Of a stretch of 64,000 nucleotides of DNA, positions 430 through 61,725 are shown one piece after another. The notes beneath the pieces were generated by a model, which was given only the letters and a program-made list of their open reading frames with translations, had not been told where the DNA came from and did no database searches. The DNA lies in the IMG/VR virus record IMGVR_UViG_3300042453_002018, positions 18,199 to 82,198 of that record; one strand, given 5' to 3'. This DNA is from a virus. Its lineage: Duplodnaviria > Caudoviricetes. Made by a program: the position numbers and the translations under genes. Position 1 is the first letter of the stretch; each line of letters begins with the position of its first letter.

Positions 430-3189
430 ATGAAATTTAGCGATTTTCTGCGTGAGCAGAAAGAAAAACATGCTGTCCTAGCATTTGGACGCATGAATCC
501 GATTACAAACGGTCACGAAAAAGTAGTTAAAACCGTTAAAAAACTTGCCAAACAAGTTGGCGGTTCACATCATATTGTCCTGTCACACTCACAGGATGCA
601 AAGAAAAATCCCCTTACAGTAGAACAAAAGATCAAACATGCTAAACATGCGTTTGCCGACACAAACTTTGTAGCAGCATCCAAAGAATCGCCTACATTCT
701 TTGATTATGCAGAAAAACTATACAAACAAGGCGTAACTCATCTTCACATGGTTGCTGGTTCTGATCGTGCTGTTGAATATGTAAAATTACTTCAAAAATA
801 TAATGGCACACATAAAGGTGCCCGTTTCAATTTCAAATATGTTGGTGTAGAATCCGCTGGTGAACGTGATCCAGATGCAGAAGGTGCAGAAGGAATTTCT
901 GCATCAAAGATGCGTGACGCTGCAAAGAACGGAGACTTTGATACTTTCAAAAAAGGTGCGCCATCAACAATGTCAGTTGCTCAAGTCAAACAAATGTATA
1001 ACGATGTTCGTAAAGGTATGAGACTTCATGAAGAAATACTTCGTGAAGGTGTTCATGACAAAGGTATTTTCAAAGCAGTATTTCTAGGTGGTGGTCCCGG
1101 TTCAGGTAAAGACTATGTGTTAAGCAAAACACTTGATGGTCATGGTCTGACAGAAATCAATTCTGACAAAGCACTTGAGTATTTGATGGACAAAGAAGGT
1201 CTTGATAAGAAGATGCCTGATGATGAAGAAGCACAACGTAATGCAGTTCGCAAGAGAGCAAAAAATGTAACGGAATTACGTCAGCGCCTTGCACTTCATG
1301 GACGTAATGGATTAATTATCAATGGTACAGGTGATGATCCAGAAAAGTATGCAAAACTTAAAGACATGCTTGAAAAGTTAGGCTATGAAACACAGATGAT
1401 CATGGTCAACACAGCAGACGAGGTTTCAAAAGAAAGAAACATCGAACGTGGTCAGCGCGGTGGTCGTACTGTACCAGAAAACATTCGTAAAGAAAAATGG
1501 GATTCTGTGCAAGCAGCACGACCAATGTTTGGTAAAATATTTCGTGACAATTACATTGAGTTTGATAATTCAGAAGATTTGCGTACCGCATCTCCAGATG
1601 TTGTGGAAGCAAAGACCAAAGAATTAGACGGCATTTTTAAGAGCGTACAAAAATTTGTTGCAAAACCACCTAAGAATGATGATGCAAAAGGCTGGATTGC
1701 TACTGAACTCGGCAAGAAAGATACCGCACCGATTCGTACCGACATGAAACCACACGCTGATGCAGGCACACATGATGACATGAACACGATGGGACTTGAA
1801 TACTATGGTTTTGGTCGTTATGGTAAAGATGGTAAAGTAACACACCGTTCTGTACACGGCAGTCTTGTGCCAGTTGAGAAGATTGCAAAAACTGTTGAAA
1901 CACATCAAAAGAAAATGTCAAAAGTAAATGAGGCATTTGATAAACTCATCAATGAAGCAGTTACAGTTTCGATTACTGGCGACACAGTAGAAGAAGTTAC
2001 TAAAACAATTCGTTTGCTGAAAACGGACGAAGAAGAAATGACTGAGGAAGAAGAAGTGAATACAATGTCTGATCCTGGTGCATACAATCTACTGACACTC
2101 GGTACAGGCATGATCAAAGAAGATTTGCGTAATTGGTTTAATCCAAAACATCCAGAGGGTGGTTGGAAACGAATCAATTCTAAAGGTGAAGCAATAGGTC
2201 CTTGTGCAAGAGAAGAGGGTGAACCAAAGCCAAAATGCATGTCAAATGCAAAGAGAGCAATGCTTTCTAAAAAAGAACGCGCATCAGCAGTTGCATCAAA
2301 ACGCCGTCATGATCCAAATCCAGAACGCAAGGGCGAACCAATTAATGTGTCAAGTTTTGGTAAAGGCAAAATTAGTGAAGCCGCATACGAGGGCAACATT
2401 GGCATGATGGAAGTTATGAAGTTCCATCAGAAAGCCACACCAGAACAAAAGAAAAAGTTCAAAGAACATCTTGCAAACAAAAATCACAAAGAAGCATGGA
2501 AAATGATTCAACATGTTTCTGGTACAAAGTTGATCGGTAAACAATTTGAAGAAACCGAAAAGAAGCAAAAACTGTTGACAGATAAAAATGGTAAACCAAG
2601 ATTGTTTTTCATTCGTGGTTCAGCAGCAAAAGAAGCACATCAAAAAAATGGTACAGTAGCAAAAGTTGGTAAAAGATATGTCGTTAAACTAAAAGAGGAC
2701 TTATATGAAGTACATTCACCTAATAATTCTGCGATTGAAGCAGTTTATGGACAGAATAACTCCACCCCGTCAGCCGAGCAACTTGGAAAAGTCAGAGCCA
2801 GTACTGGAAGAAAAGAACGACCAGCCCTCGACAAACCCGTTGCCGAAGGAAGAAGAACAATCAGTCTTGCCAGCATCAAAGAAAACTGGCAGAAAAAAAT
2901 CCAAGAGTCAATAGACAAAGGAATAGAACCAGGCATTTCAATGGCAGGTGCTGGTGAAAGCCCTGCAAGAGATATGGGTGAGAAACCAGATCGTGATGGT
3001 AAAGCAACACAAGTTACATGCAATGGTACAGGCGCAGGTGCAATATGTCCTAAACACGGAATGAAAAATTGCAGGCTTGCAGAATTAACTGGTGATGAAA
3101 CAACAGCAAGTATCGGCGATCAAAAAGAAGATGAATTGAAGAAAAAAGGTATATCACTCACAACATTCAAGAAAAAAAATTACATATGA
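430..3189 (+). CDS. multidomain head-associated protein: HxGH-type (cytidylyltransferase-like) nucleotidyltransferase + zeta-toxin-like P-loop kinase + small C-terminal domains
   Basis: FGRMNPITNGHEK, VAGSDR and ISASKMR motifs; AVFLGGGPGSGKD Walker A; N-terminus MKFSDFLRE resembles T4 capsid-targeting sequence. Confidence 0.75.
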   Translation: MKFSDFLREQKEKHAVLAFGRMNPITNGHEKVVKTVKKLAKQVGGSHHIVLSHSQDAKKNPLTVEQKIKHAKHAFADTNFVAASKESPTFFDYAEKLYKQGVTHLHMVAGSDRAVEYVKLLQKYNGTHKGARFNFKYVGVESAGERDPDAEGAEGISASKMRDAAKNGDFDTFKKGAPSTMSVAQVKQMYNDVRKGMRLHEEILREGVHDKGIFKAVFLGGGPGSGKDYVLSKTLDGHGLTEINSDKALEYLMDKEGLDKKMPDDEEAQRNAVRKRAKNVTELRQRLALHGRNGLIINGTGDDPEKYAKLKDMLEKLGYETQMIMVNTADEVSKERNIERGQRGGRTVPENIRKEKWDSVQAARPMFGKIFRDNYIEFDNSEDLRTASPDVVEAKTKELDGIFKSVQKFVAKPPKNDDAKGWIATELGKKDTAPIRTDMKPHADAGTHDDMNTMGLEYYGFGRYGKDGKVTHRSVHGSLVPVEKIAKTVETHQKKMSKVNEAFDKLINEAVTVSITGDTVEEVTKTIRLLKTDEEEMTEEEEVNTMSDPGAYNLLTLGTGMIKEDLRNWFNPKHPEGGWKRINSKGEAIGPCAREEGEPKPKCMSNAKRAMLSKKERASAVASKRRHDPNPERKGEPINVSSFGKGKISEAAYEGNIGMMEVMKFHQKATPEQKKKFKEHLANKNHKEAWKMIQHVSGTKLIGKQFEETEKKQKLLTDKNGKPRLFFIRGSAAKEAHQKNGTVAKVGKRYVVKLKEDLYEVHSPNNSAIEAVYGQNNSTPSAEQLGKVRASTGRKERPALDKPVAEGRRTISLASIKENWQKKIQESIDKGIEPGISMAGAGESPARDMGEKPDRDGKATQVTCNGTGAGAICPKHGMKNCRLAELTGDETTASIGDQKEDELKKKGISLTTFKKKNYI

Positions 3190-17796: not shown

Positions 17797-18435
17797 GTGA
17801 AAACCCTAGCACTATTTTTACATCAGCCGAAATGCTCTATTCAATCTGGTAACGGAATTATAAAAGCATTACACCCATTCTATAAATTTAAAATATTCAC
17901 TAAACATGAAGTTGAAGACGATTTCTTTGATGACGTTGACATGGTTGTATTTCCTGGAGGTGTTGGTGATGCTGATTCTTGGGATTCTCTTCTCAAGTTT
18001 CATAAATCCAGAATACAGAAGTTTGTTGCAAACGGTGGACGCTATCTGGGAATATGCATGGGTGCCTATTGGGCTGATCACACTTATTTTGGGCTATCTT
18101 CAGACTTCAGAGTCGATCAATACATTACAAGACCAAACACCGATACCAAAAGACCCCATGCAAAACAAATGAAAGTTACTTGGGATAATAAACCCGAAGA
18201 ACTTTTCTTTTATGATGGGTGTGCAATTTTTGGTGATGAAACAAAATATGATGTCATAGCACGATATCCTAATGGTGATGCAATGGCAGTTATACAGAAT
18301 AGAATCGGTTTGATCGGCTGTCATCCAGAAGCAGAGCAACATTGGTATGAAGATTATACATGGATGAGAAAACGATGGAACGGCAGCAAAAACTATTTGC
18401 TGCTTGATTTTGTAAACAGATTAATGGAGAAGTAA
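17797..18435 (+). CDS. class I glutamine amidotransferase-like (BPL-N-type) protein
   Basis: FPGG, YLGICMGAY nucleophile elbow, CHPE. Confidence 0.75.
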   Translation: MKTLALFLHQPKCSIQSGNGIIKALHPFYKFKIFTKHEVEDDFFDDVDMVVFPGGVGDADSWDSLLKFHKSRIQKFVANGGRYLGICMGAYWADHTYFGLSSDFRVDQYITRPNTDTKRPHAKQMKVTWDNKPEELFFYDGCAIFGDETKYDVIARYPNGDAMAVIQNRIGLIGCHPEAEQHWYEDYTWMRKRWNGSKNYLLLDFVNRLMEK

Positions 18436-21245: not shown

Positions 21246-22652
21246 ATGAAACTATTTAAAAAATTATCTATCGTAGTTGCACTTGCAGCAGTAATTCCTG
21301 CATATGCTGATGAGTATAAAGATACATTGAATATTCTAAGAGAGAAGAATATAATCACTCAAAAAGAATATGAATCAAAACTCAATGCATATGAAGAAAA
21401 AGAAGAAAACAAAAAGTTTGCAGAACAAAGAATCGATAAAGATGTTAGTGATTCGGTCAAATATAGACAAGCAAGAGCAAACGACGGTTCAGTCACAGAA
21501 AATGGACTTGGACTCAAATCAAAAGATGGTAACAATACGGCGCAGTTTACAGGTCGAATTCACATGGACTATCGACACTACACACCAGATTACGGTGTCG
21601 GTCAAACCACGGATTCGTATCAGAACTTAGCAGAAGTTCGTCGTGCAAGATTTGGTGTTCGTGGCCAGTTTGCAAAAGACTTCAAATATCAATTACTAGC
21701 AAACTTTGGTGCAAGTGATGGCTTTAGTTCTACATCATCAACAGCAGATGAGATGTGGGTAAACTATGCAGCAAATCCAGAAATGCAATTTCAATTTGGT
21801 TTATTCAAGATGCCATTTAGTCTTGAACAAATGACAAGTTCAAACAATCTAGATTTTATGGAACGTAGTTTGATTGGTCAGAATGATACTGAATTTATTC
21901 CTGCAAAAGAAACTGGTTTCATGTTACATGGTGTGCCAAAAGCTGGTCTTACATATGCTATAGCAGCAAGTAGAGGCAAATCCAATAAGAGCGCAGAGTT
22001 CGATGGACTTGATTATATTGGTCGTGTAACAACTAATATTGCTGAACTAACAGGCAGCAAAGCATATACTGCACACTTGGGTGCAGCATACAGCACAGGT
22101 GAAATTAAGAGTGGTGTTGCACCAGCCAGTGGTAGAACAGAATCTCGTATGCAGTCTGGTTGGTTTACCGGTCCTGCATTGGGTGGTGCTACTACAAGAA
22201 CACGACAGGGACTTGAAGCAGCATTTGCATATAACGGTTTAAAAGTTCAAGGCGAACAGTTCAATTTTAAATATGATGCTGCAACAGGTAGTGACCAAGA
22301 AATCAAAGGGTACTATGTACAAGCAGTTTATAATTTAACTGGTGAATCACATGCATACAAAGATGGTGCGTTTGGTTGGATTAAACCAAATAATCCAATC
22401 GACAAAGGTGGTCGTGGTGCATGGCAAGTTGGTGTGCGTATGAGTGAGTTTGATGCAAGTGATGTATCCGTTGCAACAGGCAAATCAAATCGTGCTACTG
22501 CTATGACATATGGCATCACCTGGTTCTGTACCGACAATCTACGTTTCATGTTAAACTATGTTGATACTAAGTTTGATGCGTTAGTTGGTTCTTCAGGTAG
22601 TCGTGTAACAGGTGATAAAGCAATTATGTTTAGAAGTCAATTAAGCTTCTAA
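21246..22652 (+). CDS. OprO/OprP-family phosphate-selective porin
   Basis: signal peptide; RRARFG, GLFKMPFSLE, FMERS; C-terminal Phe; follows pstS. Confidence 0.85.
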   Translation: MKLFKKLSIVVALAAVIPAYADEYKDTLNILREKNIITQKEYESKLNAYEEKEENKKFAEQRIDKDVSDSVKYRQARANDGSVTENGLGLKSKDGNNTAQFTGRIHMDYRHYTPDYGVGQTTDSYQNLAEVRRARFGVRGQFAKDFKYQLLANFGASDGFSSTSSTADEMWVNYAANPEMQFQFGLFKMPFSLEQMTSSNNLDFMERSLIGQNDTEFIPAKETGFMLHGVPKAGLTYAIAASRGKSNKSAEFDGLDYIGRVTTNIAELTGSKAYTAHLGAAYSTGEIKSGVAPASGRTESRMQSGWFTGPALGGATTRTRQGLEAAFAYNGLKVQGEQFNFKYDAATGSDQEIKGYYVQAVYNLTGESHAYKDGAFGWIKPNNPIDKGGRGAWQVGVRMSEFDASDVSVATGKSNRATAMTYGITWFCTDNLRFMLNYVDTKFDALVGSSGSRVTGDKAIMFRSQLSF

Positions 22653-27728: not shown

Positions 27729-27815
27729 GCGACTATGGTGAAACAGGTATACACAGCAGACTTAAAATCTGCCGCTCGAAAGGGCATGCCAGTTCGATTC
27801 TGGCTAGTCGCACCA
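27729..27815 (+). tRNA. tRNA-Leu(TAA)
   Basis: cloverleaf, loop CTTAAAA, long variable arm, TTCGATT, CCA. Confidence 0.92.
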
Positions 27816-41981: not shown

Positions 41982-42368
41982 ATGGTAGGCAACGAAAAAA
42001 TTGTAGCCAATCGAATTCGGACACCTGATGGTACGATTCTTGAATCAATGCATCGGCATGATTATGTAACTTATCTTGATGCAAATGGTAAAGAATATAT
42101 GGTCGATGGTGGTCTAGACTATCTGCGCCGCAATGTACATGATGATGCACCGTATCAAGAATTATCGGTGTATGCTGATGACCTTCACATTGAAATCCGC
42201 AATGTATTCAAGTGGGGTACACGTGGTAAAGACGGCAAACAACCTTTGACATATGTACCACTCAAAGACTTGACAACAGAACACATTGAAGCTATACTAG
42301 ATACTCAATCACATATTCAAGAACACATTCGAAAAATATTTTTGAATGAATTGAGTTTTCGGGGTTAA
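41982..42368 (+). CDS. conserved phage hypothetical protein
   Basis: ESMHRHDY...VDGGLDYLRR...WGTRGKDG. Confidence 0.6.
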   Translation: MVGNEKIVANRIRTPDGTILESMHRHDYVTYLDANGKEYMVDGGLDYLRRNVHDDAPYQELSVYADDLHIEIRNVFKWGTRGKDGKQPLTYVPLKDLTTEHIEAILDTQSHIQEHIRKIFLNELSFRG

Positions 42369-42386
42369 AGTTTTATATATAGAGAT

Positions 42387-42482
42387 ATGAACAAAATTGT
42401 ACACATTACGAAGGATTGCCAAGAGTATCGCACATTTAGCGATAATAACTCATGGGCACCCGCATCGGAGGTTTGTGTATAG
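42387..42482 (+). CDS. putative attenuator leader peptide MNKIVHITKDCQEYRTFSDNNSWAPASEVCV (31 aa)
   Basis: short ORF whose stop codon lies in the 5' arm of an antiterminator, upstream of the tRNA array. Confidence 0.65.
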   Translation: MNKIVHITKDCQEYRTFSDNNSWAPASEVCV

Positions 42483-42547
42483 ATTGTAGTTTAGTTCAGA
42501 CTGTATACAAACCCCAAAGCCCACAAAGTTTTGGGGTTTTTTGTTTT
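42470..42547 (+). terminator. attenuator: antiterminator 42470-42482/42501-42513 overlapping intrinsic terminator 42509-42520/42528-42539 + U-tract
   Basis: GGTTTGTGTATAG pairs CTGTATACAAACC (13 bp); AAACCCCAAAGC pairs GTTTTGGGGTTT (12 bp), then T-run. Confidence 0.75.
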
Positions 42548-42551
42548 ATAA

Positions 42552-42630
42552 CTGGGTGTATTGTCAGCCTGGTCAGACGGCTCGCCTTGGAAGTGAGAGG
42601 ACGCAGGTTCAAATCCTGCCACCCAGACCA
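42552..42630 (+). tRNA. tRNA-Pro(TGG)
   Basis: loop CTTGGAA; TTCAAAT; CCA. Confidence 0.88.
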
Positions 42631-42642
42631 AAAAAAAAGTAG

Positions 42643-42701
42643 TTGACAGAGTTTTGGTTGTTGTGTAGAATGATGTTTGTTGATTGATTGTTCTTTAAAA
42701 A
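42643..42701 (+). promoter_or_regulatory. sigma70 promoter followed by boxA-like antitermination site
   Basis: TTGACA-N17-TAGAAT, then TGTTCTTTAAAA (rrn boxA TGCTCTTTAACA) just before tRNA-Glu. Confidence 0.65.
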
Positions 42702-42712
42702 ATTTGTGACAT

Positions 42713-42787
42713 GCACCGTTCGTCTATCGGTTAGGACATTGCCCTTTCACGGCAGTAAGAGGAGTTCGATTCTCCTACGGTGTACCA
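42713..42787 (+). tRNA. tRNA-Glu(TTC)
   Basis: loop CTTTCAC; CCA. Confidence 0.92.
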
Positions 42788-42797
42788 ATTATAGTAT

Positions 42798-42874
42798 GGG
42801 TGTGTAACTCAGTTGGTTAGAGTATCAGACTTTTAATCTGAGAGTCGTGAGTTCGAATCTCACCACACCTACCA
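42798..42874 (+). tRNA. tRNA-Lys(TTT)
   Basis: loop CTTTTAA; CCA. Confidence 0.92.
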
Positions 42875-42937
42875 TATTGAAGCACATTGGCTTGTAAAGC
42901 GGTGAAGTATTCGTAAAGTTAGTGTGTTTCAATATGG
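42872..42937 (+). ncRNA. inter-tRNA stem-closed element 1
   Basis: CCATATTGAAGCACATT...AGTGTGTTTCAATATGG inverted ends. Confidence 0.55.
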
Positions 42938-43012
42938 CACTTTAGTTCAGTTGGTCAGAACGCTGCCCTGTCACGGCAGAGGTCAGGGATTCGAATTCCC
43001 TAAGTGTCGCCA
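42936..43012 (+). tRNA. tRNA-Asp(GTC)
   Basis: loop CTGTCAC; GCCA. Confidence 0.92.
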
Positions 43013-43018
43013 GAATAT

Positions 43019-43094
43019 TGACCGAAACGCACAACGGTGTGCGGCCAGACTGTTAATCTGTGTGAGACAGGTTCGATCCCTGTTCGGTCAGCCA
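43019..43094 (+). tRNA. tRNA-Asn(GTT)
   Basis: loop CTGTTAA; GCCA. Confidence 0.85.
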
Positions 43095-43095
43095 A

Positions 43096-43279
43096 GTTCC
43101 GGTTACTACTTTCCTGAAAGTAGCGTGTAACGACGATAATTGTTCGGTGGCTATGGCACCGTTAGCGCAGTCGAATGCAGACAACATAGCAGCGTGGACA
43201 CTACGTAGCAAAGTGCTTTTAGTGTTCGGACAGGGAAACAACTCCAGCATAGGGGCGACCGTGGAAAGCGTGGCCTAAG
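43096..43279 (+). ncRNA. unidentified structured RNA in tRNA array
   Basis: GC-richer non-coding stretch with several hairpins (CTACTTT/AAAGTAG, CGGTG/CACCG, GGACACTA/TAGTGTTC). Confidence 0.45.
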
Positions 43280-43407
43280 CAATATTAAATTTGCAGTTTG
43301 TAAGCCATGGGCTTGATCATGCCTGAGTAACTATGTACACACACGGTAAGTCCAGCTGGCAATTCCGTTGAGCATAGCAAATAGTGCAGACTGCAATTCT
43401 AATATTG
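43280..43407 (+). ncRNA. unidentified stem-closed RNA in tRNA array
   Basis: CAATATTA..TTGCAGTTTGTA pairs TGCAGACTGCAA..TAATATTG. Confidence 0.5.
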
Positions 43408-43408
43408 T

Positions 43409-43482
43409 TGGGGATTGGTGAAATGGTATCACACTGGATTTTGATTCCAAGGTCGTAAGTTCGATTCTTACATCCCCTGCCA
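43409..43482 (+). tRNA. tRNA-Gln(TTG)
   Basis: loop TTTTGAT; GCCA. Confidence 0.88.
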
Positions 43483-43489
43483 GTATTAT

Positions 43490-43573
43490 GGGTAACGAGC
43501 AGCATTGGTGACTGCACCTGACTGTAAATCAGACGCTTCGGCATACTTGGTTCGACTCCGAGGTTACCCACCA
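43490..43573 (+). tRNA. tRNA-Tyr(GTA)
   Basis: loop CTGTAAA; variable arm; CCA. Confidence 0.9.
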
Positions 43574-43574
43574 A

Positions 43575-43650
43575 CGGTCTTTAGTAAAATGGATTATTAC
43601 GGTGGGCTACGGACCCGCAGGTGGGAGTTCGATTCTCTCAAGACCGTCCA
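43575..43650 (+). tRNA. tRNA-Arg(ACG)
   Basis: loop CTACGGA; CCA. Confidence 0.88.
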
Positions 43651-43724
43651 TATTGAAGTGTACTCTTTGAGGTCTTGGTCGTTACCAGCGTAGCAAAAAC
43701 GGCGACAGAGTACACTTCAATGTG
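43649..43724 (+). ncRNA. inter-tRNA stem-closed element 2
   Basis: CATATTGAAGTGTACTCT...AGAGTACACTTCAATGTG, 18-bp stem. Confidence 0.55.
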
Positions 43725-43729
43725 AGAGT

Positions 43730-43826
43730 CCATATTGAAGTGTTGTTTAGGGTGGCATGTAAAAGTTTAACAAGACTTTGAGGGCTGGAATTCCCGATCT
43801 GTGAACAGCAGAACACTTCAATATGG
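43730..43826 (+). ncRNA. inter-tRNA stem-closed element 3
   Basis: CCATATTGAAGTGTT...AACACTTCAATATGG. Confidence 0.55.
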
Positions 43827-43900
43827 GGGATTGGTGCTAATTGGGAACACATGTGCTTTGCAAGCATGAGTAAGCAGTTCGAATCTGCTATCCTCCACCA
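43825..43900 (+). tRNA. tRNA-Ala(TGC)
   Basis: loop TTTGCAA; G3:U70; CCA. Confidence 0.92.
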
Positions 43901-43910
43901 AAGTTTTATT

Positions 43911-43986
43911 GCCGATTTAGCTCATCTGGTAGAGCAGGCGCCTTGTAAGCGTCAGGTGGTGGGTTCAAGTCCTGCAATCGGCACCA
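43911..43986 (+). tRNA. tRNA-Thr(TGT)
   Basis: loop CTTGTAA; CCA. Confidence 0.92.
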
Positions 43987-43992
43987 GACTAT

Positions 43993-44068
43993 CGCAGAGT
44001 ATGGAAGTGGTCATCCGCTTGGTCTCATAAGCCGAGAATCGCAGGTTCGAATCCTGCCTCTGCAACCA
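43993..44068 (+). tRNA. initiator-like tRNA-fMet(CAT)
   Basis: C1:A72 mismatch; loop CTCATAA; CCA. Confidence 0.85.
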
Positions 44069-44081
44069 TTATAGGTGAATC

Positions 44082-44549
44082 ATGAAAAAAGAAATTGATG
44101 TGAACGAAGTGGCTGCATTTCTTGATACGTGTGGTCCTGATACGAAAGTTTATATTGGTGCTGATTCTGAGCGTTTTCAAGTAAACGGTGAATGGTATGC
44201 TGATTACATTCTTGCTGTTGTTGTTCATATCGATGGTCGTCATGGTTGCAAGATATTTGGTGCAGTCCAGCGTGAGCGTGATTTTGAACAAAAGAAAAAT
44301 CGTCCACGTTTTCGTTTGATGAATGAAGTATACAAAGTAGCTGATTTATATTTGAAATTGTATGAAGCAATACCACATGATATTCAAGTGCATTTAGATA
44401 TTAATCCAAGTGAGATGCATGGTAGTTCGTGCGTAGTAAACGAAGCAATTGGTTATATCAAAGGTACTTGTAATGTCGTACCATTGATCAAGCCAAAAGC
44501 TTTTGCTGCAAGTTATGCAGCCGATAGATTTAAAAGTTTAGTAGCGTAA
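44082..44549 (+). CDS. RNase H-like YkuK-family protein
   Basis: VYIGADS, RLMNEV, VHLDIN, AASYAAD; inside tRNA array. Confidence 0.75.
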   Translation: MKKEIDVNEVAAFLDTCGPDTKVYIGADSERFQVNGEWYADYILAVVVHIDGRHGCKIFGAVQRERDFEQKKNRPRFRLMNEVYKVADLYLKLYEAIPHDIQVHLDINPSEMHGSSCVVNEAIGYIKGTCNVVPLIKPKAFAASYAADRFKSLVA

Positions 44550-44550
44550 T

Positions 44551-44624
44551 CTCGGTGTAGTTTAATGGCAGAACCACGGTCTCCAAAACCGTATGTGGGA
44601 GTTCGATTCTCTCCACCGAGGCCA
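44551..44624 (+). tRNA. tRNA-Trp(CCA)
   Basis: loop CTCCAAA; GCCA. Confidence 0.9.
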
Positions 44625-44626
44625 AT

Positions 44627-44701
44627 GGTGTCTATGGTGTAGTGGTAGCATTACTCTCTGTGAAAGAGTAGGTACGGGGTCGGTACCCGTTAGACACCCC
44701 A
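44627..44701 (+). tRNA. tRNA-His(GTG), atypical T-loop
   Basis: G-1:C73; loop CTGTGAA; T-loop GTCGGTA. Confidence 0.8.
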
Positions 44702-44705
44702 ATTT

Positions 44706-44779
44706 TGTCCTGTAGTTAAATGGTATAACTGTCGATTGATAATCGACCATTACAAGTTCAATTCTTGTCGGGACAACCA
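44706..44779 (+). tRNA. tRNA-Ile(GAT)
   Basis: loop TTGATAA; CCA. Confidence 0.88.
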
Positions 44780-44781
44780 AT

Positions 44782-44856
44782 GGTAGTGTAGCATAACGGT
44801 AGTGCGCCACCTTCATACGGTGTCAGGTGTAAGTTCGAATCTTACCACTACTACCA
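44782..44856 (+). tRNA. tRNA-Met(CAT)
   Basis: loop TTCATAC; CCA. Confidence 0.85.
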
Positions 44857-44857
44857 T

Positions 44858-44933
44858 GCGCTGGTGACGGAACGGTATACGTGTTGGTCTTAGAAACCAA
44901 ATTTTGAGAGTTCGAATCTCTCCTAGCGCACCA
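44858..44933 (+). tRNA. tRNA-Leu(TAG), short variable arm
   Basis: loop CTTAGAA; 76 nt; CCA. Confidence 0.85.
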
Positions 44934-44957
44934 TATAAGTATCGCGTGTGAGGCTGT

Positions 44958-45032
44958 GCATCGTTAGTTCAGCGGTAGAATCCCTGCCTTACAAGCAGGT
45001 TGTCGGTGGTTCGAATCCATCACGATGCACCA
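44958..45032 (+). tRNA. tRNA-Val(TAC)
   Basis: loop CTTACAA; CCA. Confidence 0.92.
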
Positions 45033-45037
45033 ATTAT

Positions 45038-45115
45038 GCAACGGTGGCAGAGTGGCCCAATGCAAGAGTCTGCAAAACTCTAAAACCGTCGGTTCAAATC
45101 CGACCCGTTGCTCCA
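45038..45115 (+). tRNA. tRNA-Cys(GCA)
   Basis: loop CTGCAAA; U73 discriminator; CCA. Confidence 0.9.
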
Positions 45116-45120
45116 GTTAG

Positions 45121-45208
45121 GGAAGTGTGGATGAGTGGTTTAAATCAGCAGTCTTGAAAACTGCCGATCAGAAATGATCCGTGAGTTCGAATCTCACCGC
45201 TTCCGCCA
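45121..45208 (+). tRNA. tRNA-Ser(TGA)
   Basis: loop CTTGAAA; long variable arm; GCCA. Confidence 0.92.
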
Positions 45209-45223
45209 TTTAAAGGAAAAATT

Positions 45224-45628
45224 ATGTTAGAATGTTTAATTGTTGGTGATAGCATCGGTGTTGGTGTGAGTCAAGTTCGTAGGGAGTGTGTTGCATATGT
45301 GAAGAGTGGTATCAATTCACATAATTGGAATAAAATCTATATGAATAAACTACAACCGACAAAAACTTTGATTATCAGTCTTGGTGCAAATGATTTAGGT
45401 ATCAACACAGAAGGAAATATTCGGTCATTACGAACAAATGCACAAGCACAAAAAGTTTTTTGGCTTTTACCGAGTCAAAAATTGAAGCCAAAACAAGTAG
45501 AAGCAGTAAAACAAGTCGCAGCAGAGTTTGGAGATGTAGTAATTTCTCGACCAGAGAGTGATATTAGTGCGGATGGTGTACATCCTACTGGAAAAGGTTA
45601 CAAAAAACTTGCGGATCAGACACGGTAA
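45224..45628 (+). CDS. SGNH/GDSL hydrolase-like protein
   Basis: GDSI, SLGAND, DGVHPT..GY blocks. Confidence 0.8.
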   Translation: MLECLIVGDSIGVGVSQVRRECVAYVKSGINSHNWNKIYMNKLQPTKTLIISLGANDLGINTEGNIRSLRTNAQAQKVFWLLPSQKLKPKQVEAVKQVAAEFGDVVISRPESDISADGVHPTGKGYKKLADQTR

Positions 45629-45715
45629 GTTGGATGAGAGGCTTAAATCAGCGGTTTGCTAAACCGTCGAGCGTAGAAATACGTTCCGTGGGTTCAAATC
45701 CCACACTTACCGCCA
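45624..45715 (+). tRNA. tRNA-Ser(GCT)
   Basis: loop TTGCTAA; long variable arm; 5' end overlaps stop codon of upstream CDS. Confidence 0.9.
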
Positions 45716-46930: not shown

Positions 46931-47004
46931 GCGGGATTAGTTTAATGGTAAAACGTGAGCCTTCCAAGCTCCTGTTATCAGTTCGATTCTGATATCCCGC
47001 TCCA
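46931..47004 (+). tRNA. tRNA-Gly(TCC)
   Basis: GCGGG start; loop CTTCCAA; TCCA. Confidence 0.92.
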
Positions 47005-60535: not shown

Positions 60536-60685
60536 TTATGCAAATTAGTGAACAAGATTATTACGAAAGATTTGAAGCATACTTGAAAGAATGTGGTTCT
60601 AATCCAGGCACAACATTCTTTGGTGCATGGGGTTGGTATGCAGCAAGAAAAAATGAATTTGATGCAATAATGCAAGAAGACGGAA

Positions 60686-60934
60686 TTGTTGTAACTCCTT
60701 CAAAGTGAAGGCATTCTGGACCCGGGTTCGATCCCCGGCATCTCCACCAAAAGTATTCTTGTCCATGGAGTTGGGAACGGAAAGATAAACCGTGAGAATA
60801 CTTTTGATGGGGATGACATGGCTTCGACAGGGTGAGATAGCGGAGAAGGCAACACAGTAGGCGATGACTGTAAATCAAGCAAATCTACAAATGCAAACGA
60901 TGCATTTTACGGAGAAGAACGCCTAGCAGCGTAA
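60686..60934 (+). ncRNA. ssrA: permuted two-piece tmRNA; tag (A)NDAFYGEERLAA*
   Basis: T-arm + CATCTCCACCA (ends 60749) precedes GGGGATG (60809) with G3:U pair; resume codon GCA at 60893, TAA at 60932-60934; 5' boundary approximate. Confidence 0.88.
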
Positions 60935-61002
60935 CTCTCATGGGGTTTAAGTGGGGTGTACCTTATTACCAAAACACCCTACACCAAATTCAGAGATACA
61001 TT

Positions 61003-61725
61003 ATGAAAGTAAACATTGGTCCTTATACAAACTGGTTCGGTCCCTATCAATTAGCAGACTTACTTTGCTTCTGGGCAAAGAAAGTACCCGATGAGTGTGG
61101 CTTTTCACGAAAGCCTGATTGGGTTCACGACTTTGGTACATGGCTTGCAGAAGATCGAAACGGTAACGACTCTTGGTTGACTAAAGTTTGCCAAAAGATT
61201 GAAGAGTACAAGAAGCGCAAAATCAAAATACGCATTGACAAGTATGACACATGGTCAATGGATCACACATTAGGTATGATCGTTTTGCCGATGTTGAAAC
61301 AGTTGCGTGATACTAAACACGGTTCACCACTAGTTGATACAGAAGATGTGCCAGAAGAACTACGTATTAGTGGTTATGACGATTGTTCTTCCCAACTTGA
61401 ATTGAAGTTTGAAGATGATGAAGAATTTCAAAAAAAATCTTGGGACATCACACATCGTCGTTGGGAATGGGTGTTGAATGAAATGATTTTTGCATTTGAA
61501 CACCTCATTGACGATTCGTGGGAAGAAGCATATCGTTCGGGTAATATTGATACACATTCTGTGCCGTGTGAATGGGATGCAGATGGTAAACCAATACTCT
61601 ACACATTTGAACACGGACCAAATCACACATACGAATGTGATTACGATGGCATGAAAAAAGTTTATGATCGTATGGATAACGGTTTTCGTTTATTTGGTAA
61701 ATACTACAGAGGACTTTGGGATTGA
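61003..61725 (+). CDS. conserved phage hypothetical protein
   Basis: IDKYDTWSMDHTL..I.LPML.QL...GFRLFGKYY..LWD. Confidence 0.7.
   Translation: MKVNIGPYTNWFGPYQLADLLCFWAKKVPDECGFSRKPDWVHDFGTWLAEDRNGNDSWLTKVCQKIEEYKKRKIKIRIDKYDTWSMDHTLGMIVLPMLKQLRDTKHGSPLVDTEDVPEELRISGYDDCSSQLELKFEDDEEFQKKSWDITHRRWEWVLNEMIFAFEHLIDDSWEEAYRSGNIDTHSVPCEWDADGKPILYTFEHGPNHTYECDYDGMKKVYDRMDNGFRLFGKYYRGLWD

Follow-up and report, generated by a model that had tools for sequence, protein, structure and literature searches.

Why phages carry arrays of transfer RNA (tRNA) genes and how these are used has been debated for decades. The locus described here lies in a 64,000-nucleotide (nt) stretch of DNA, referred to as the window, which covers positions 18,199 to 82,198 of a lake-water virus record of 82 kb in IMG/VR (IMGVR_UViG_3300042453_002018) and contains, according to ARAGORN, 24 tRNA genes and a transfer-messenger RNA (tmRNA) gene. 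The main tRNA array spans 42552-45715. Immediately before it lies a 180-nt element in which a short open reading frame (ORF) ends inside a hairpin that overlaps a U-tailed terminator, and the layout suggests that this element is probably a ribosome-mediated leader-peptide transcription attenuator placed at the head of the array. An earlier note on this DNA, made from the letters alone, had proposed such an attenuator, a reading now supported by the recurrence of the design at array heads in ~11 divergent lineages and by the evolution of the ORF as a coding sequence; the ORF, the hairpin around its stop codon, the terminator that overlaps this hairpin and tRNA-Pro all lie where that note had placed them.

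The leader ORF (42387..42482, + strand, as are all features of the element) extends from ATG to TAG and comprises 31 codons and the stop. The 5′ arm of the antiterminator (42467..42482) spans the stop codon and the four sense codons that precede it, and its 3′ arm (42501..42515) doubles, over 42509-42515, as the start of the 5′ arm of an intrinsic terminator (42509..42547), which consists of a stem-loop of 12 pairs (42509-42539) and a U tract to ~42547. The tRNA-Pro(UGG) gene follows at 42552..42630. In the antiterminator, 42470-42482 pairs with 42501-42513 and 42467/42468 with 42515/42514, giving a predicted fold of -20.0 kcal/mol (z = -5.0) that is matched by 0/200 dinucleotide shuffles; the terminator folds at -15.5 kcal/mol (z = -3.2), a value matched by 1/200 shuffles. 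Because both helices use 42509-42515, they are mutually exclusive.

This competition is conserved. A peptide-alignment search matched 12 IMG/VR loci and 35 metagenome loci, two of them cut by contig ends, and the leader ORF is kept in 46 complete related loci that correspond to 38 distinct DNA sequences, here called the window's family. Together with the divergent element of G001, a complete relative (169,777-bp record with terminal repeats), these 38 form a folding set of 39, in all of which (39/39) the antiterminator is found, at -12.4 to -23.6 kcal/mol, and reaches the C-run of the terminator stem, taking ~7 of its first bases; the terminator is likewise found in 39/39. In the 38-sequence alignment (A5), 88% of antiterminator cells are paired, compared with 21-50% when the partner is slid, and four pairs have changed on both sides. 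The unpaired cells come mostly from two subgroups in which the 3′ arm is shifted by one base and the hairpin still folds. The terminator shows 97.7% of cells paired and three pairs changed on both sides; both helices are backed by covariation. When the transcript ends before the 3′ arm of the terminator, the minimum-energy fold includes the antiterminator in 30/39 sequences. A further hairpin of 6 base pairs (bp), predicted by the RNAalifold consensus, lies inside the ORF at codons 14-20 (42426..42444; A5 columns 56-74), each of its six pairs being retained in 37-38 of the 38 sequences, and other lineages display a hairpin of different sequence at or just 5′ of their single Trp codon. This internal hairpin would be a candidate RNA polymerase pause or synchronising hairpin.

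The geometry fits a ribosome at the end of the ORF masking the 5′ arm of the antiterminator, and suggests the following mechanism. The short ORF would be translated, in older lineages from the leaderless messenger RNA (mRNA) of its own consensus promoter. A ribosome that promptly reaches the last codons would cover the antiterminator 5′ arm, so that the terminator forms and transcription stops before the tRNA genes, whereas a ribosome that lags or was never loaded would allow the antiterminator to form first and occupy the start of the terminator stem, with read-through into the tRNA genes as the outcome. On a leaderless transcript the polymerase and the first ribosome would start together, perhaps synchronised by the internal hairpin, and the antiterminator arm would have to be covered by the ribosome in the interval before the 3′ arm emerges, some 20-35 nt further on; slow decoding at any codon would decide the race for the antiterminator. 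From this layout we infer which way the switch turns, the race itself and the physiological signal.

That the ORF is translated is what its coding-type evolution leads us to infer. All complete copies retain the ATG, a frame of 29, 30 or 31 codons and the stop, which is TAG, or TAA in three loci, and insertions and deletions are in frame; the sole exception to an intact frame is locus L128, in which one base is deleted close to the ORF end. Among 25 distinct gap-free ORFs, 817/1697 (48%) of single-base codon differences are synonymous in the frame of the ORF, compared with 150/1927 (8%) and 595/2377 (25%) in the other frames and a random expectation of 53/279 (19%), and the other two + strand frames contain stops in 23/25 and 25/25 of these sequences. 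The coding signal is only moderate, since variable columns by codon position 1, 2 and 3 number 12, 14 and 19, and parts of the ORF are frozen at synonymous sites too, as in the region of the internal hairpin, where such sites barely vary. The ORF is almost never predicted by gene callers. A profile search of 1.84 billion protein representatives returns one single-member cluster of 31 amino acids (aa) and one spurious 500-aa match.

The presence of the element is linked to tRNA arrays. The gene upstream of the leader in the window, a DUF7695 gene at 41982-42368, was used as bait to retrieve 80 IMG/VR loci. All six of the closest relatives in which a tRNA array directly follows this gene have the ORF, hairpin and terminator, and in L004, L007 and L009, which are equally close and have no array there, the element is absent and the next protein gene follows directly; among more remote relatives of the upstream gene, tRNAs are few or absent. 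In G001, whose upstream-gene copy is 75% identical to that of the window, the array of 24 tRNAs lies ~8 kb beyond this copy. Directly before its first tRNA stands an element with an A/T box, a 32-codon ORF and an overlapping terminator, in which a hairpin of -23.6 kcal/mol (z = -5.9) has a perfect 12-bp arm that contains the TAG stop and tRNA-Ser begins 8 nt past the U tract. The G001 peptide is 26-33% identical to that of the window, depending on the alignment, yet contains all 20 amino acids. The gene upstream of the G001 element has a single further relative, which lacks the element. A BLAST search with the 180-nt element gives no match in G001, G002 or G003; DNA similarity therefore misses distant members, as it missed the divergent copy of G001.

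In a wider collection, DNA similarity against 50,697 phage records yields tRNA genes only, and tblastn with two leader peptides against the same records (E up to 10) yields chance matches only. A structural pattern scan of IMG/VR, with 80 of 83 stretches screened, recovers seven true members, all of them known ones or G001, the rest being chance matches. The search was extended through position and structure, using an RNase H-like ORF (PF04308; 44082-44549) that is embedded in the array of the window and has 258 IMG/VR relatives, of which the best 80 loci, 665 kb in total, were fetched. This ORF appears to travel with tRNA arrays, + strand tRNA genes surrounding it in 79/80 of the fetched loci (none in L280). 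The screen sought a tRNA preceded by 230 nt free of other tRNAs, a hairpin and T-run within 170 nt upstream, and an ATG ORF of 15-60 codons ending 5-55 nt 5′ of the hairpin, with no filter on composition. It returned 16 distinct ORFs of at least 29 codons, eight of the window's family, that of G001 and seven new ones (37-43 codons), as well as five ORFs of 17-19 codons in other frames or places. Inspection of missed heads added four: L266 (38 aa, 20 kinds of amino acid), L299 (41 aa, 20 kinds), L279 (TTG start, 19 kinds) and L300 (34 aa, 18 kinds).

The same design is thus present in ~11 lineages. In the new ones, the ORF has, at its end or close to it, a G-rich segment that pairs with the opening bases of the terminator stem, with antiterminator z-scores of -5.2, -3.4, -4.6, -6.6, -3.6 and -1.55. 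The stop codon falls within the antiterminator arm in the window's family, G001, L278, L284 and L300; in L249, L257 and L277 it falls in the loop, within ~21 nt beyond the arm. The overlap of leader stop and antiterminator, which the earlier note had proposed to check in related phages, is retained, and more strongly than expected. The placement is also selective: among the fetched loci with at least 400 nt available upstream, the element stands at 24/53 evaluable first tRNAs, compared with 0/220 internal gaps of at least 230 nt. No similar element precedes the other tRNAs of the window at 27729 or 46931, and the whole 82-kb record contains no second copy.

What the leader would sense is suggested by its composition. 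As the earlier note had observed, the leader of the window contains 18 of 20 amino acids, Gly and Leu being missing, and has no run of a single residue. Taken alone this is not unusual, since 5/197 small ORFs (25-40 codons) of the window reach 18 kinds and a random model gives a probability of 0.05 for at least 18. Across lineages, however, the picture is different: in representatives of 9/11 lineages the full set of 20 fits into 29-43 residues, and the other two have 19 and 18 kinds. Among 17 representative leaders, 14 have 20 kinds, one 19 and two 18, and all 16 screened ORFs of at least 29 codons hold the full set, compared with 9-13 kinds in the five short ORFs. For a random peptide that starts with Met and has the amino-acid frequencies of the long ORFs of the window, the probability of containing all 20 kinds is 1.5e-4 at 29 residues, 4.1e-4 at 31, 6.5e-4 at 32, 4.6e-3 at 38 and 1.4e-2 at 43. 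Real proteins of the window reach 20 kinds in 1/11,472 of their 31-residue windows. Among 1920 distinct small ORFs (25-45 codons, both strands) in the 665 kb of the 80 loci, 22 contain all 20 kinds, of which 17 are leaders; of the remaining five, most extend across tRNA genes. Were the lineages independent, the probability of nine or more of eleven being complete would be near 1e-15 at p <= 0.014, a figure that overstates the case because the lineages are homologous, though their identities are mostly 10-50%. High amino-acid diversity in the face of sequence divergence, a further expectation of the earlier note, is therefore found in the relatives, most leaders holding all 20.

Within the window's family, the 33 distinct peptides contain 20 kinds in 17 cases, 19 in nine, 18 in six and 17 in one; with the peptide of G001 the full set is present in 18/34, and completeness appears favoured but not absolute. 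In one clade that departs from the family consensus at 9/31 positions, the substitutions include the family's only Leu and only Gln, and the full set is kept, with Leu, Pro, Gln and Glu relocated and both lost residues regained elsewhere in the peptide, an outcome that has P = 0.007 when the substituted positions are filled at random. Of the 17 listed leaders, 15 draw on both serine codon boxes. No leader contains a cluster of regulatory codons, the commonest residue occurring 2-6 times per leader without a run. A proline-specific sensor for tRNA-Pro was considered and rejected: the late Pro codon of the leader is not conserved, and the element of G001 precedes tRNA-Ser.

The earlier note had linked the missing Gly and Leu to tRNA genes lying outside the array. 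The tRNA-Gly(UCC) at 46931 and tRNA-Leu(UAA) at 27729 are indeed outside, whereas a tRNA-Leu(UAG) sits inside the array at 44858; moreover, leaders of relatives contain both residues, and the explanation fails. More generally, a match between the amino acids missing from the leader and the tRNAs missing from the array could not be established.

Since nearly every amino acid is present and no codon run exists, the quantity sensed would most likely be overall decoding capacity, that is, the supply of any charged tRNA. Any tRNA shortage, caused by starvation, host shut-off or host tRNA nucleases, would then raise phage tRNA output in a feedback loop. The wider proposition, that these leaders form a viral family of leaderless mini-ORFs selected to contain every amino acid, whose transit time reports all charged tRNAs and gates the array, seems to us plausible, if a little short of probable. 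If it were true, expression of the array would be regulated by the state of translation itself, the tRNA genes would be under a supply-and-demand feedback loop, and the array would also be turned on by the loss of any tRNA to host defences or host shut-off; counter-defence is one possible, putative use of such a sensor. Being short and built of sigma-70-type promoters and an intrinsic terminator, the element might in addition serve as a compact reporter of global decoding capacity.

The conserved unit could instead be an ordinary tiny gene, encoding a micro-protein of 29-43 residues with its own promoter and terminator, the stop hairpin being a 3′-end or stability element and the tRNAs being transcribed by leakiness. 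The ORF is indeed under purifying selection, ~10 core residues are nearly invariant within the window's family, several lineages have a unit with its own consensus promoter and terminator followed by another promoter, and very small phage peptides with functions are known. However, the peptide is mostly only 10-50% identical between lineages, while its length class, the position of the stop, the helix overlap and the full amino-acid set persist, and its conserved positions coincide with RNA helices (the internal hairpin, the Trp-codon hairpins of other lineages and the antiterminator arm), where synonymous sites are frozen as well. A folded or binding peptide would give no reason for all 20 amino acids in 9/11 lineages, nor would it explain the exclusive placement at array heads. 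We therefore regard a tiny gene as unlikely and favour the attenuator, because the features that are conserved are those an attenuator needs and the peptide sequence diverges between lineages.

The promoters bear on how the leader would be translated. In the window, a sigma-70-like promoter with 11/12 consensus matches lies inside the 3′ part of the DUF7695 gene (42270..42298, +), ~116 nt upstream of the leader, and its hexamers occur at the same distance in 29/39 elements examined and are absent from 10; they are also present in L024, a relative without downstream tRNAs, and their conservation may be partly for coding reasons. This promoter is the likely source of leader transcripts in the window's lineage. 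Closer to the leader, a degenerate promoter (42351..42382, +; 8/12 matches) has as its -10 region a conserved A/T box (42374-42382) just 5′ of the ATG. In L247, L249, L257, L278, L284 and L300, the A/T box is the -10 of a sigma-70 promoter with 11-12/12 matches that ends 6-7 nt 5′ of the ATG, and a hand count on the sequence gives the same spacing in L266; in L299 the gap is 10 nt. Such abutting promoters are located, for instance, at 488-525 in L247, 956-993 in L278, ~2670-2710 in L300 and ~880-915 in L266. By the usual spacing rule, a promoter that ends 6-7 nt from the ATG places the transcript start at or next to its A, which implies leaderless mRNAs in at least 7 loci. Two consecutive ATG codons open the leader in three lineages. 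The A/T box was also considered as a general phage promoter motif, and rejected, the 8-nt box occurring once in the window.

These promoters give some room to a second alternative, in which the element is an attenuator that senses another signal, namely ribosome availability, the capacity for leaderless initiation or how quickly termination proceeds at the stop codon (release factor 1 at TAG, or amber-suppressor tRNAs), amino-acid diversity being secondary. Leaderless initiation depends on the state of ribosomes and initiation factors, TAG ends 13/17 listed leaders, and ARAGORN detects tRNAs with amber-reading anticodons in the related arrays L237 and L259. This leaves the selection for a complete amino-acid set unexplained, and the stop is not fixed, TAA and TGA occurring too; we give this alternative as small a chance as the tiny gene. 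Amber-anticodon tRNAs (labelled Pyl by ARAGORN, with one labelled Stop) are found at L237 3869, L259 near 270 and L252 near 1700, and suppressor tRNAs of this kind could interact with the switch, most leaders ending in TAG. An RNA-only switch with an untranslated ORF, in which protein or tRNA binding would set the competing hairpins, shares the terminator/antiterminator competition with T-box and protein-mediated attenuators and would account for the parts of the leader conserved at the nucleotide level beyond coding need, but it is very improbable, the in-frame indels, kept start and stop, synonymous excess and composition all requiring translation and an Rfam scan (E up to 10) giving no T-box or riboswitch match and nothing above noise (best leader-type match Phe_leader, 17.1 bits against a cut-off of 55, E = 3.4).

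The leader-peptide attenuator has itself to be weighed against several observations that do not favour it. The full-length naked RNA at equilibrium prefers the terminator state in 39/39 sequences, so that the ribosome-free outcome hinges on kinetics beyond folding programs, and the trp-like 1:2 anti-antiterminator, an RNAalifold candidate, has z = -0.35 and is equalled by 67/200 shuffles. No copy has a Shine-Dalgarno sequence 5′ of the ATG, and the leader's own promoter is weak (8/12) in the window and G001, its -35 part having decayed. A strong promoter lies right after the terminator in L001, L090, L092, L105 and others of the window's family, and likewise in L247, L249, L257, L262, L279, L299 and L300; read-through is therefore dispensable for tRNA expression in those lineages. 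The full amino-acid set is not always kept, 16/34 peptides having fewer than 20 kinds, with 18 in the window and 17 in one variant. No leader is found at 29/53 evaluable first tRNAs, some of which may not be true array heads, as flanks are limited to 4.5 kb, and none at six tRNA heads of five cultured distant relatives (Alishewanella, Paraglaciecola, Vibrio and two Aeromonas phages). Finally, the lineages being homologous, counts of lineages are not fully independent.

What read-through would contribute depends on the genes that follow. As the earlier note had cautioned, a second promoter can drive most of the array of the window: a strong sigma-70-like promoter (42643..42671, +; 11/12 consensus matches), conserved among aligned close relatives, serves the remainder of the array and leaves only tRNA-Pro between the terminator and itself. 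No promoter-like site is listed on the + strand between 42298 and 42643, and tRNA-Pro, as the only tRNA before the next promoter, therefore depends on read-through. The promoterless tRNAs after the terminator are Pro in most of the window's family, Ser, Ser and Cys in G001, where two 12/12 promoters follow, and Gln with several more tRNAs in L278, L284, L266 and L277. Because further promoters lie downstream, read-through adds to tRNA transcription and is not its sole source.

Several neighbouring features were recorded alongside the element. The other 20 tRNA genes of the array, tRNA-Glu to tRNA-Ser(GCU), lie at 42713..45715 (+) with two ORFs interposed. A small GDSL-like hydrolase ORF (45224-45628) lies between the two tRNA-Ser genes. 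A short A/T-rich motif at ~42681-42700 recurs before the first tRNA in L247, L249, L257, L262, L278 and L279; it stands between the promoter (or terminator) and the next tRNA in these distant lineages and may serve the tRNA precursor as a processing or leader signal. In L299, ~330 nt of strongly structured sequence (~700-1050) separate a consensus promoter from tRNA-Glu, downstream of leader and terminator. Elsewhere in the window, the tmRNA gene (60657-61025; ARAGORN) is of the permuted, two-piece type, an unusual cargo that may point to the group of hosts. At 21246-22652 lies a possible auxiliary metabolic gene, a 468-aa homologue of phosphate-selective porin O/P (Pfam E = 2.6e-48) for which a single-sequence scan of bacterial genomes finds no close relative, and a 919-aa protein (430-3189) with cytidylyltransferase-like and P-loop kinase domains could serve nucleotide or NAD metabolism, or RNA repair.

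Ribosome-mediated attenuation and upstream ORFs that sense translation stress are well known. Full-text searches of a literature with few subscription journals yielded no account of phage tRNA genes preceded by a leader-peptide attenuator, and none of a leader whose defining feature is a complete amino-acid set. Phage tRNAs have recently been tied to escape from tRNA-cleaving defences (PMC10264068, PMC11464382, PMC11555353), and a term search of the first of these returns no mention of promoter, terminator, leader or attenuation.

T-box riboswitches resemble the element in that they sense tRNA charging through a terminator/antiterminator switch, but they are untranslated and specific for one tRNA, whereas the phage element shows coding constraints. 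Attenuators can also yield trans-acting products, as described for the small RNA rnTrpL and the peptide peTrpL (PMC6614838, PMC7298713); the terminated phage leader transcript, of ~160-240 nt, could likewise have a putative second role in trans. Also related are toiL of topAI-yjhQ (PMC12121999) and bmrB of bmrCD (PMC4191407), short ORFs that report general ribosome slowing and activate downstream genes. They respond to ribosome-targeting antibiotics and control bacterial toxin-antitoxin or efflux genes, and neither is reported to have a complete amino-acid set or to lie upstream of tRNA genes.

The closest architectural parallels are the leaders of amino-acid operons (trpL, hisL, pheL, thrL and ilvL), which share with the phage element an upstream short ORF and a terminator in competition with an antiterminator; the final codons of the ORF form the 5′ arm of the latter, and the position of the ribosome selects one structure or the other, an arrangement whose general model was given in PMC1183508. 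The bacterial leaders have no sequence or Rfam relationship to the phage element, they carry runs of regulatory codons and they control biosynthetic enzymes; the phage element, in contrast, shows maximal amino-acid diversity, fronts viral tRNA genes, has no supported anti-antiterminator and in many members apparently belongs to a leaderless mRNA. In spacing the two are comparable, ~65 nt separating the stop codon of the phage leader from the end of its U tract, much as in trpL. Among the bacterial leaders, thrL senses Thr and Ile, and ilvL senses Ile, Leu and Val, and these two thus resemble the phage leader in that one leader reports more than one amino acid. They do so through clusters of two or three codon kinds, whereas the phage leader uses up to 20 kinds with a maximum of 2-6 repeats per residue, and would be the first in the literature searched that is informative through the completeness of its amino-acid set and not through a codon run.

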